Of a DNA stretch of 64,000 nt, positions 27,307-32,484 are shown piece by piece; within the stretch, counting starts at the first letter, position 1, and each line of letters opens with the position of its first letter. The notes beneath the pieces were generated by a model, which saw nothing but the letters and a program-made list of their open reading frames with translations, searched no databases and was not told the DNA's origin. The stretch is from the NCBI GenBank assembly GCA_000165345.1, contig CM000434.1, forward strand, positions 96,001-160,000. The letters run 5' to 3'. Made by a program: the position numbers and the translations under genes.

Positions 27307-29595
27307 TTAATTAATCATTTGCCTCTTTCTCTTTGTTAATACGTAATTTACCACATTTTCTTCATTATCCAAAATTACTTTAACACTATGTAATCCACTA
27401 GTTTCATAATAAAATCCGCTTATTGGCTCTATTCTAAATATCACATTCTTATTCTTGATGCCATCAGAAAAATTCGAAGTTCCTGATCCTGGCCCAAGTA
27501 CTTGCCCTAAACCTGGACCTGAAATTGAACTTGAAACTGAACCTGAACCCGTTGTTGATCCTATTAAAGTTCCTGATCCAATTACGGCTCCTATTACTGA
27601 AGCTGATCCTGATATTGGTCCTGATAATGATACTGAACTCGGTACCGATGCTGATCCTGATACTAAAGCTGATACATTTCCTGTACCTGCTACTGATCCA
27701 GAAATAGTTCCTGACCTTGCTATGGATGTTCCAGTTCCTATTACAGTTCCTGTACTATTTAATCCTTCCAAAGAAGATGAAACAGTGGAAATCCCTCCTC
27801 CATGATGGCCACTACCATTGGTATACATCTCTTGATTTCCGATATTTGCACTATTATAAATCAAGTTTGGATTCTCATCCATTTGAAGAGAATTATTAGA
27901 AATCACTGCTCCTCCTACTGTAACTCCTGTTTCTATTCCTGTTCCTGTTCCTGTTGTTCCTGTTGTTCCTGTTGTTCCTGCTGCCATTGCTCCGGTTCCT
28001 GTTGCTCCAGTTATTCCTGATGCTGAATTAATATTACTATTTTGAAACATAACAACTATCAGTAATTCAACCAAAGTATCTTTCTTTAACTTTTCCAAAA
28101 AAATGGCTAAAGAACGCACAGGAGTTAATCTATATTCACTTCTTATACCTTTCTGCCATAATCTTCTTGTTAAACTTAAAACTTTTGGCTGTAATCTTGC
28201 TGTTTGCGTCATTACTATCACCTTTGGATAGCATGACTTTAATAAAGAAATTGGTTTTAAAATTAATTCTTTTGTCAAATCTGTCATTTCTTCATATTCA
28301 CTTGCTTTAAGACTTCCCAATGAAAATGTATTAACTCCTAAATTTCCTGGGTCATTTTGATAATTATTACTAAAATTTGTAATACTCACATTTTTTTCCT
28401 TTTTGTTATTATTATTATTATTACTATTACTATTATTATTGTTAATATTTGTATTAAATCCTCCCCATGAACTTCTTCTTGTCATACCAAAATTTTTTTC
28501 ACTTGATGAAATACCCAAATTAAATACACCATTATTCATCATTGAAATATCATTTACTGAAATACCATTAATATATCCTCCAGTATTCACAAACTCTGAT
28601 CTATACTTTTTTGCTTGCTCACAAACTTGATTAATAATTAATTCTATAGAAATTTCTCCCATAATACAATATAAAAAATTCTGAAATCTACCTATACCCA
28701 ATCCTCCCATATTATTGCTGATATTATTATTGTTATTATTCACATTCATATTATTATTATTATTATTATTATTATTATTACCACTATTTAAACAATAACA
28801 TCTTGTAATACTATTAATTATATCTGAATAAGAACCTCCCATTCCATAAATTATATTAATCCCTTGTTTTTCGGATGTTATTGAATATACTAAATTTGTT
28901 TGATTATATAAATTAATATCAAAATCCATAATAGGATCCAAATAAAATTTGACTTTTTTTTCTTTATATATTAATAATTCTGTTGATTCTGACAGTAAAT
29001 TCAGTATCTCATTCAATACTTGAACATATAGCTTTATTATCTGGTTATCACGAATATATTCGTAACTTTTCATTATAAAGTTATTTTCATATATACTTTT
29101 TAATCTATAATTCCCACTATTACTTTCATATTTCCACTCAAAAGCATGCATTTTCAAAAATAAATCTCTTATAAATTTATCCTCCTCTCTTAGAAACTCT
29201 TCATCTATATCCTCTTGTTCTTTTTGATTATCCTGTTTATGTTCCTTTTCCTTTTCTTCTTTTTTTAATTTTACATCATTATTACTATCATTATCATAAA
29301 TTTTCTTAAAGATAGATTTTTGAGTAAACAAATCCAATCTTCTCCTCTTAATAATAACTTCCTCTTTTAATTTATTACTAAACATTTTCTCAAGTAATTC
29401 CAAGTAAACAATTTTTGACATTATAGGAATTGTCATTCTTACAATTGGAACATCATCTAAATAATCCAACCAAGGTAAAATAAGCTTTAGTGATAATAAT
29501 AATCCTTCAACTTCTAAAATAATATTTTCCATATTAACAATTTGTTCATTTTCATTCAATTGATATATTCTCTTTAAATCTTCATATAATAACAA
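27307..29595 (-). CDS. C-terminal portion of a GCN2-family protein: HisRS-like region including anticodon-binding-like domain, Gly/Thr/Ser-rich linker, C-terminal domain; same frame as ORF 29644-32484
   Basis: IIYGMGGSYSDII resembles class II aaRS motif 3 (GGRYD) of the GCN2 HisRS-like domain. LWQKGIRSEYRLTPVRSLAIFLEKLKKDTLVELLIVV resembles the HisRS anticodon-binding domain. The upstream frame is continuous with ORF 29644-32484 except for one TAA at 29644-29646. Confidence 0.5.
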   Translation of the reverse strand: MLLYEDLKRIYQLNENEQIVNMENIILEVEGLLLSLKLILPWLDYLDDVPIVRMTIPIMSKIVYLELLEKMFSNKLKEEVIIKRRRLDLFTQKSIFKKIYDNDSNNDVKLKKEEKEKEHKQDNQKEQEDIDEEFLREEDKFIRDLFLKMHAFEWKYESNSGNYRLKSIYENNFIMKSYEYIRDNQIIKLYVQVLNEILNLLSESTELLIYKEKKVKFYLDPIMDFDINLYNQTNLVYSITSEKQGINIIYGMGGSYSDIINSITRCYCLNSGNNNNNNNNNNMNVNNNNNNISNNMGGLGIGRFQNFLYCIMGEISIELIINQVCEQAKKYRSEFVNTGGYINGISVNDISMMNNGVFNLGISSSEKNFGMTRRSSWGGFNTNINNNNSNSNNNNNNKKEKNVSITNFSNNYQNDPGNLGVNTFSLGSLKASEYEEMTDLTKELILKPISLLKSCYPKVIVMTQTARLQPKVLSLTRRLWQKGIRSEYRLTPVRSLAIFLEKLKKDTLVELLIVVMFQNSNINSASGITGATGTGAMAAGTTGTTGTTGTGTGIETGVTVGGAVISNNSLQMDENPNLIYNSANIGNQEMYTNGSGHHGGGISTVSSSLEGLNSTGTVIGTGTSIARSGTISGSVAGTGNVSALVSGSASVPSSVSLSGPISGSASVIGAVIGSGTLIGSTTGSGSVSSSISGPGLGQVLGPGSGTSNFSDGIKNKNVIFRIEPISGFYYETSGLHSVKVILDNEENVVNYVLTKRKRQMIN

Positions 29596-32484: not shown

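Follow-up and report, generated by a model that had tools for sequence, protein, structure and literature searches.

We analyzed a window of 64,000 nucleotides (NCBI GenBank assembly GCA_000165345.1, contig CM000434.1, positions 96,001 to 160,000 of the forward strand), in which two adjacent open reading frames (ORFs) on the minus strand encode parts of a protein related to the eIF2-alpha kinase GCN2. Our results indicate that the two ORFs very probably form one intact gene of Cryptosporidium parvum, a descendant of GCN2/IF2K-D with a dead kinase domain, and that the stop codon between them is an artefact. The gene lies about 120 kb from one end of chromosome 6. A sequence-only reading of the window had offered two interpretations, an intact kinase-dead GCN2 paralog split by an assembly error and a GCN2 pseudogene caught decaying. 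The former is supported, as an intact kinase-dead relative of GCN2, and the latter is refuted.

The reading frame and its in-frame stop codon

The upstream ORF (29644..32484, minus strand, 946 aa) starts with ATG, and the downstream ORF (27307..29595, minus strand, 762 aa) starts with TTG. They share one frame, and the sole interruption of the joined frame is the TAA at 29646-29644. The sequence-only reading had described the frame, the stop and the TTG start correctly. On the minus strand the junction reads ...GAT TCA AGT TNT AAA TAA TTT AAT TTA GAT..., and the codons past the TAA (TTT AAT TTA GAT and onward) stay in frame as far as the TTG chosen by the ORF finder. The joined translation is 1725 aa long; the earlier estimate of about 1720 aa was right in joining one frame and slightly short in length. 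Two Ns lie in the gene, at 29651 and 29745, and the window (A+T content, 76.5%) contains 69 Ns in a few clusters. The N at 29651 had been noticed and placed two nucleotides from the stop. In fact it precedes the T of TAA by 5 positions, 4 bases being between them, and sits two codons ahead of the stop; the second N had been missed. Along all its 1725 aa, the joined protein matches WKS78161.1 (Cryptosporidium sp. 43IA8) with 100% identity. Since a frame of 5.2 kb is open apart from one stop and the protein is fully identical to a 1725-aa protein of another isolate, the observation is beyond chance.

We compared the site with the same locus in four other assemblies (CP029785, which is 43IA8; CP141123; CP044417, which is IOWA-ATCC; and CM109966). 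All four carry AGT TTT AAT AAT TTT (in translation, S F N N F) where the window has AGT TNT AAA TAA TTT. Over window positions 29640-29655, the sense form consistent with an artefact is TTTAATAATTTT, and the TAA-bearing type is TNTAAATAATTT. When the coding sequence of 5178 nt was aligned with three C. parvum assemblies (CP029785, CP044417 and CP141123), five positions differed, namely the two Ns and positions 29647, 29646 and 29644. The three base differences amount to one A gained and one T lost in neighbouring homopolymer runs. This is a compensated slip beside an N, and the frame is regained after two codons. In the same three assemblies, the gene is one unbroken ORF of 1725 codons. Since the other assemblies carry sense codons at the site and the rest of the gene is identical, there is a strong case that this assembly acquired the in-frame TAA through a base-calling error, as the sequence-only reading had considered. 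The stop falls in a low-complexity insert of the region resembling histidyl-tRNA synthetase (HisRS), described below. A published re-annotation reports that ORFs are split where the C. parvum Iowa assembly is of low quality (PMC4637869).

The public annotation carries this gene in two pieces. Although the frame of 1725 codons is open in CP141123 (L002:4001-9178) and CP044417 (L003:4001-9178), two genes were deposited for it. The upstream model is a "Serine/threonine-protein kinase, partial" of 944 aa (QOY40931.1, WRK32650.1). The downstream model of 741 aa starts from an internal Met (QOY40930.1, CPATCC_002548), and its sequence is that of the original Iowa II protein EAK89757.1/XP_627435.1. 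The latter was named 'Low complexity protein having signal peptide and glycine-rich repeat', and elsewhere the HisRS-like half is a "hypothetical protein". The protein identity to the original Iowa II models, together with the Ns, points to the 2004 Iowa II assembly as the source of the window. The split in the newer annotation looks inherited from the erroneous stop.

All other homology matches of the joined protein were Cryptosporidium proteins: C. meleagridis (84% identity), chipmunk genotype I (73%), C. ubiquitum (65%), C. canis (57%), C. felis (46%), and C. ryanae, C. bovis and C. andersoni (35-39%). Its mates in the protein cluster were from C. parvum and C. hominis. A dictyostelid origin, implied by the earlier choice of sequences for comparison and suggested at first by the A+T content of 77% and the poly-Asn tracts, was thus not borne out. 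None of the aligned Cryptosporidium orthologues is interrupted (10/10). The ratio of nonsynonymous to synonymous substitution rates (dN/dS) was calculated by the Nei-Gojobori method for C. parvum against C. hominis, C. meleagridis and chipmunk genotype I. For the whole gene it was 0.25 in all three comparisons. The values were 0.07-0.30 for the RWD domain, 0.09-0.27 for the kinase-like domain, 0.00-0.09 for the anticodon-binding-like part, 0.09-0.17 for the last 50 residues and 0.6-0.7 for the Gly/Ser/Thr-rich linker. The constraint is equal upstream and downstream of the false stop. These comparisons indicate that the gene is under purifying selection across the genus and is not a decaying pseudogene. 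The idea of a unitary pseudogene fails because the stop is absent from four assemblies and the dN/dS is about 0.25, not near 1.

A real nonsense mutation, giving either a GCN2-family pseudogene or a truncation specific to the sequenced Iowa II stock, is therefore extremely unlikely. The TAA does stand in the window, and two models of 944 and 741 aa are in the public annotation; however, that split annotation was placed on DNA without any stop. Such a mutation would also need two compensating indels within four bases, right beside an uncalled base, in a gene of which the remaining 5.2 kb are identical to three open C. parvum assemblies and contain no second disabling change. The dN/dS of about 0.25 on either side of the site argues against it as well.

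It is barely credible that the window contains two genuine genes, or that the stop is bypassed by readthrough or by splicing of the 21-nt GTTNTAAATAATTTAATTTAG as a tiny in-frame intron. This segment has GT...AG boundaries around the stop and a length divisible by three. However, it encodes (S)FNNFNL(D), a stretch of conserved length that is found also in C. hominis and C. meleagridis, and there is no stop to bypass in the other assemblies; their sense codons ruled out both the mini-intron and readthrough. As for two separate genes, the HisRS-like homology spans the junction.

The kinase-like domain and its flanking regions

The kinase-like domain is closest to the catalytic domain of GCN2 in both sequence and fold, in agreement with the earlier assignment. 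It scored 29.1 bits with the Pfam Pkinase model, under the cut-off of 31.7. In a phmmer search against PDB sequences, the yeast GCN2 kinase domain (1zxe) ranked first, with an expectation value (E) of 3.6e-21, followed by human GCN2, PKR and PERK. A profile of ten orthologues matched the yeast GCN2 kinase domain at E 3.8e-24. The AlphaFold2 model of residues 335-665 had a predicted local distance difference test score (pLDDT) of 69.8 and a predicted template-modelling score of 0.70. With this model, the top 17 Foldseek matches were all GCN2 kinase domains (E about 5e-13, target TM 0.75-0.79). A word-index homology search with the kinase-domain alignment returned zero matches, known Cryptosporidium proteins included, and is hence uninformative. 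The GCN2 signatures RYYQCW.E and W.LFRQIL..L.YCH are kept.

To compare the catalytic motifs, the Cryptosporidium proteins, other apicomplexan relatives and canonical GCN2s were aligned to one profile. Canonical GCN2 has LGxGGFG in the glycine-rich loop (G-loop), YA[VI]K in beta3, LQEC in alphaC, HRDLKPxN in the catalytic loop and GDFG. The C. parvum protein has LYSGKNV, YQVS, QTKV, HLNLSSNC and SNFI at the respective positions. Thus, the G-loop, the beta3 Lys, the alphaC Glu, the HRD Asp, the Lys and Asn of the catalytic loop and the DFG Asp are all replaced. The sequence-only reading had given HLNLSS for HRDLKP, which is correct, and had noticed the other two losses in a different register. 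It had anchored on 'RIP' and assigned the VAIK lysine to Tyr383, whereas the aligned residue is Ser381; and it had read SNF for DFG, whereas DFG aligns with N509-F510-I511 and Ser508 replaces the preceding Gly. The loss of the catalytic residues holds, since C. parvum offers no Lys or Asp in either register. The losses extend across the genus as far as the distant C. andersoni, with the catalytic loop varying as H[LM][NSA]LSS[NK]C, and an Asp at the DFG position is present in C. bovis alone.

By the operational definition (a kinase fold in which one or more of the beta3 Lys, the HRD Asp and the DFG Asp are missing), the domain, in which all three are missing, is, as judged from the alignments, a pseudokinase. 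It is soundly predicted to be unable to bind ATP productively or to phosphorylate eIF2-alpha. WNK and CASK are active by unusual means despite missing canonical residues, and a similar kinase that phosphorylates eIF2-alpha or another substrate via displaced residues has to be considered. The kept fold in the AlphaFold2 model and the Foldseek matches would allow it, and T. gondii IF2K-D, which has no HRD Asp, is handled as an eIF2-alpha kinase in the literature. Moreover, one residue past Tyr383 there is Lys in several Cryptosporidium species and Arg in others, in addition to the C. bovis Asp. However, seven elements are lost at once in C. parvum (the G-loop, and Lys, Glu, Asp, Lys, Asn and Asp, which are replaced by Ser, Lys, Asn, Ser, Cys and Asn), and the genus has no conserved Lys or Asp that could compensate for them. 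An unconventional active kinase is thus very unlikely.

One feature of GCN2 activation is kept. The positions of yeast GCN2 R594/D598 are occupied by R347 and D351. In yeast, GCN2 activation depends on the salt bridge that this pair forms in the dimer interface (PMC11336063, citing Dey et al. 2007).

The RWD domain proposed by the sequence-only reading was found by Pfam, and its YPxxxP signature (Y166, P167, P171) is invariant within the genus. Among the families suggested for a Pfam/HMMER check, RWD was thus over the cut-off, Pkinase was below it, and the HisRS and anticodon families gave no match. The separate N-terminal pseudokinase (psiKD) of canonical GCN2 was not found, with one kinase-like Pfam match only; since just about 130 mostly low-complexity residues lie between the RWD and the kinase-like domain, the psiKD is absent.

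The region downstream of the kinase-like domain was compared by local hhalign with the post-kinase regions of 34 canonical GCN2 proteins, which were drawn from the exhaustive protein search described below. The two profiles matched with a probability of 98.6% and an E of 1.1e-15 over 509 columns. The alignment pairs FDDHNF... with ...FrrHGA (motif 1), QRY...IYEQP...PPR...FDMIY with KRY...VYR...HPRE...FDIV (motif 2), YGMGGSYSD with A.GGRYD (motif 3), and VIVMTQ...LTRRLWQKGIRSEYRL with VLV...LW..GI.ad (the anticodon-binding-like part). The previously noted GGSYSD motif and the anticodon-binding-like domain are both supported by this alignment. In Foldseek searches there were matches of about 62 residues to class IIa aminoacyl-tRNA synthetases (HisRS, ThrRS and GlyRS), whose anticodon-binding domains have a fold of this kind; the aligned query residues were not reported.

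The C-terminal domain of GCN2 had also been included in the proposed architecture, and this part was not borne out. No homology to it was detected by hhalign when the last 56 columns were compared with canonical C-termini (probability 0.2%). Instead, a fast-evolving linker precedes a short conserved segment (Table 1). The linker and the Asn runs differ in length among C. parvum isolates (1721 vs 1725 aa). Within this repeat-like stretch there is an antisense ORF of 116 aa (27455..27805, plus strand), probably a spurious one.

Table 1. Positions in the window of the gene and of the features assigned to it (residues are those of the joined protein)
Feature	Position	Strand	Basis or remark
Single gene for a 1725-aa GCN2-derived predicted pseudokinase, IF2K-D orthologue (coding sequence and terminal stop)	27307..32484	-	One frame; 100% identical to WKS78161.1; open in CP029785, CP044417 and CP141123
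RWD domain, residues 42-215	31840..32361	-	Pfam RWD, 23.8 bits vs cut-off of 22.8
Predicted pseudokinase domain, about residues 346-640	30565..31449	-	Closest to GCN2 catalytic domain in sequence and fold
R347...D351 (RFTQD), aligned with yeast GCN2 R594/D598	31432..31446	-	Invariant in the genus and in all examined relatives with the position aligned
beta3 strand YQVSIYR; VAIK lysine position is Ser381	31333..31353	-	Profile alignment
Catalytic loop HLNLSSNC for HRDLKPxN; Asp, Lys and Asn all replaced	31006..31029	-	H486, L489, S490 and S491 invariant in the genus
S-N-F-I for G-D-F-G; Mg-binding Asp replaced by Asn	30952..30963	-	Profile alignment
Divergent HisRS-like region, about residues 640-1485, with several low-complexity inserts	28030..30567	-	Profile-profile comparison
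In-frame stop, most probably artefactual	29644..29651	-	TNT AAA TAA in the window vs TTT AAT AAT elsewhere; only non-N differences in 5178 nt
Motif-3-like YGMGGSYSDI, aligned with GGRYD of canonical GCN2/HisRS	28819..28848	-	M1215, G1216 and G1217 invariant in the genus
Anticodon-binding-like subdomain, residues 1411-1485	28030..28254	-	hhalign; under the strongest constraint within the protein
Gly/Ser/Thr-rich low-complexity linker, residues 1486-1675	27460..28029	-	Fast-evolving, length-polymorphic; aligns poorly between species
Conserved 50-residue C-terminal segment with basic tail KRKRQ	27310..27459	-	Conserved in the genus alignment

Relatives in other lineages and neighbouring genes

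An exhaustive, one-directional HMMER search of 1.84 billion representative proteins was performed with an RWD-plus-kinase profile. Below an E of 1e-30, only Cryptosporidium proteins were found. The next matches (E 1e-25 to 1e-17) were from Neospora caninum, Toxoplasma gondii, Besnoitia, Theileria equi, Babesia caballi, B. gibsoni and Cardiosporidium. Their names include "protein kinase (incomplete catalytic triad)" for N. caninum, "eIF2 kinase IF2K-D (incomplete catalytic triad)" for T. gondii and "eIF2 kinase IF2K-D" for B. caballi. The C. felis orthologue is already annotated as IF2K-D (incomplete catalytic triad). Judging from these matches, the Cryptosporidium protein is an orthologue of apicomplexan IF2K-D and the most degenerate form seen. 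It is not a stand-alone oddity and belongs to this annotated family.

When the relatives were aligned to residues 358-513, the catalytic elements appeared to have been lost stepwise. In coccidia (P0014, P0015, P0019), T. gondii and N. caninum retain the beta3 Lys, K-P-x-N and DFG; their HRD is replaced by H[LV]S and their alphaC Glu by Gln, and the G-loop is missing. In piroplasms (P0016, P0024, P0027), DFG is gone as well. In Cryptosporidium every catalytic element is gone, which places it at the end of a graded loss. The Cryptosporidium protein and the coccidian and piroplasm orthologues, TgIF2K-D included, are alike in having an RWD and a single GCN2-type kinase domain, in having lost the HRD Asp, the alphaC Glu and the G-loop, and in a 'YG[YT]xVK' signature ahead of the DFG position. 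They differ in that none of the elements retained by T. gondii and N. caninum is left in Cryptosporidium, and in that coccidian IF2K-D is about 3,000 aa long, whereas the Cryptosporidium protein is far shorter. Furthermore, there is genetic evidence for a role of TgIF2K-D in eIF2-alpha phosphorylation, whereas the Cryptosporidium protein is known from its sequence.

With canonical GCN2/EIF2AK4 of yeast and human, the Cryptosporidium protein shares the order of RWD, kinase domain and HisRS-like region. It also shares RYYQxWxE, WxLFRQILxxLxYxH, the pair equivalent to R594/D598, HisRS motifs 1-3 and the anticodon-binding-like part. In contrast to canonical GCN2, it has no separate psiKD, the homologue of the catalytic domain is dead, no C-terminal domain is detectable, 'YR' of motif 2 is changed to 'YE', and large low-complexity inserts are present.

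A convergent gene 308 bp from the pseudo-GCN2 gene (23648-26998, plus strand) encodes a canonical protein kinase (Pfam Pkinase, 268 bits), which is probably the CaMK cgd6_520 of the C. parvum kinome paper (PMC3227725). This match supports the placement of the locus on chromosome 6. A TRIP13/PCH2-like AAA ATPase (33299-34939, plus strand), an alanyl-tRNA synthetase (35506-38481, plus strand) and a longin-SNARE (21367-22044, minus strand) are ordinary housekeeping genes with no functional link to the pseudo-GCN2 gene. Elsewhere in the window, the N clusters at 7331-8519 and 47115-49127 coincide with chains of short ORF fragments that keep to one strand and shift in frame (5705-9744, minus strand; 44788-50318, plus strand). 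These chains are probably more genes broken by low-quality sequence.

Possible role and consequences for annotation

By its predicted inactivity, the protein would not count among the eIF2-alpha kinases in catalytic terms, yet it is a member of the GCN2/IF2K-D family by descent. A non-catalytic role as a sensor or scaffold seems the likeliest. In such a role, the RWD would dock on GCN1 or ribosomes, and the HisRS-like region would sense a signal linked to ribosomes or tRNA. The pseudokinase would dimerise, via the R/D pair of the back-to-back interface, with itself or with a competent eIF2-alpha kinase, and the dimerisation would tune that kinase allosterically, in the positive direction. Pseudokinases that tune an active partner by dimerisation include the psiKD of GCN2 itself, HER3, STRAD and KSR. 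As in these, the fold and the dimer-interface feature are kept and the catalytic residues are lost. For the Cryptosporidium protein the active partner is putative, and the parallel serves as a lead only.

Candidate partners exist. The C. parvum kinome includes the eIF2-kinase candidates cgd1_890, the orthologue of PfPK4 and TgIF2K-A, and cgd3_3230, the orthologue of PfeIK1 (PMC3227725 Table S1). Thus, candidate active eIF2-alpha kinases are present elsewhere in the genome. T. gondii IF2K-D is non-essential; it helps the parasites to stay fit when arginine is limiting and when they are extracellular, and it is said to drive TgIF2-alpha phosphorylation (PMC6564765, PMC13076163). Since this protein is without the HRD Asp and is nevertheless genetically required for stress-induced eIF2-alpha phosphorylation, we tentatively favour a sensor or scaffold that would act as an allosteric activator of a competent eIF2-alpha kinase.

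The main rival of the activator is a decoy. IMPACT and YIH1 are RWD-containing inhibitors of GCN2, and by analogy the RWD might compete for GCN1 or the ribosome against an active kinase of the GCN2 type, which would lower eIF2-alpha phosphorylation. An invariant YPxxxP in the RWD, the loss of catalysis and the presence in C. parvum of a PfeIK1-type kinase, cgd3_3230, agree with this, and an RWD without kinase activity could compete for GCN1 as IMPACT and YIH1 do. However, a pure decoy needs the RWD alone. More than 1,000 residues of pseudokinase and HisRS-like region, which IMPACT does not possess, are also conserved under purifying selection, and this constraint on the entire body makes the decoy less favoured. 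Moreover, the T. gondii orthologue acts to promote the response, not to dampen it, and the use of GCN1 by cgd3_3230 is only putative. Taken together, we consider the decoy unlikely.

Several points weigh against an intact gene for a GCN2-like, non-catalytic activator. The stop was called an artefact by comparison between assemblies; IOWA-ATCC is a separately propagated line, and formally the sequenced Iowa II stock may have a private mutation. The C-terminal half gave no HisRS or GCN2 match with Pfam or in a profile search of PDB sequences. The HisRS-like region of the sequence-only reading was thus seen by hhalign and was invisible to these methods, although canonical GCN2s themselves barely reach Pfam tRNA-synt_His. 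The AlphaFold2 model of this region, made with nine sequences, was poor (pLDDT 41); with it, GCN2 HisRS-like domains and HisRS head the Foldseek list at E 0.015-1, which is weak corroboration. In motif 2, 'VYR' of canonical GCN2 aligns with 'IYE', which is invariant in Cryptosporidium (29815-29850, residues 879-890, QRYFLFPIYEQP). We take this position to be possibly that of the m2 tRNA-binding pair of yeast; if so, tRNA binding may be lost or altered. The proposed function was deduced from sequence, and some kinases without canonical residues stay active. Finally, an inhibitory decoy would be equally compatible with the retained RWD.

The pseudo-GCN2 protein has been overlooked by kinome surveys. 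The published C. parvum kinome of 73 kinases includes the neighbour cgd6_520 and does not include this gene (PMC3227725 Table S1). In the literature, we found no paper on the Cryptosporidium protein or on the pseudokinase nature of the IF2K-D clade, and a review from 2026 on the apicomplexan integrated stress response makes no mention of Cryptosporidium. The family and the label "incomplete catalytic triad" are already known from databases, and the Cryptosporidium form is an extreme variant. Through a sequencing error of the 2004 assembly, the gene is still split in the present GenBank annotation of newer C. parvum assemblies that are free of the error, and its two models should become one model under a new name.

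The finding raises doubt whether T. gondii IF2K-D, without the HRD aspartate, works directly as a kinase. It is conceivable, though rather doubtful, that the whole IF2K-D clade consists of GCN2-derived pseudokinases or near-pseudokinases, which would sense stress and activate another eIF2-alpha kinase allosterically via the dimer interface, with Cryptosporidium as the end-point. If this were true, the requirement for TgIF2K-D in eIF2-alpha phosphorylation would be indirect. Since purifying selection maintains its RWD, its HisRS-like scaffold and its dimer pair, the Cryptosporidium protein would represent a natural separation-of-function allele for the non-catalytic parts of GCN2.

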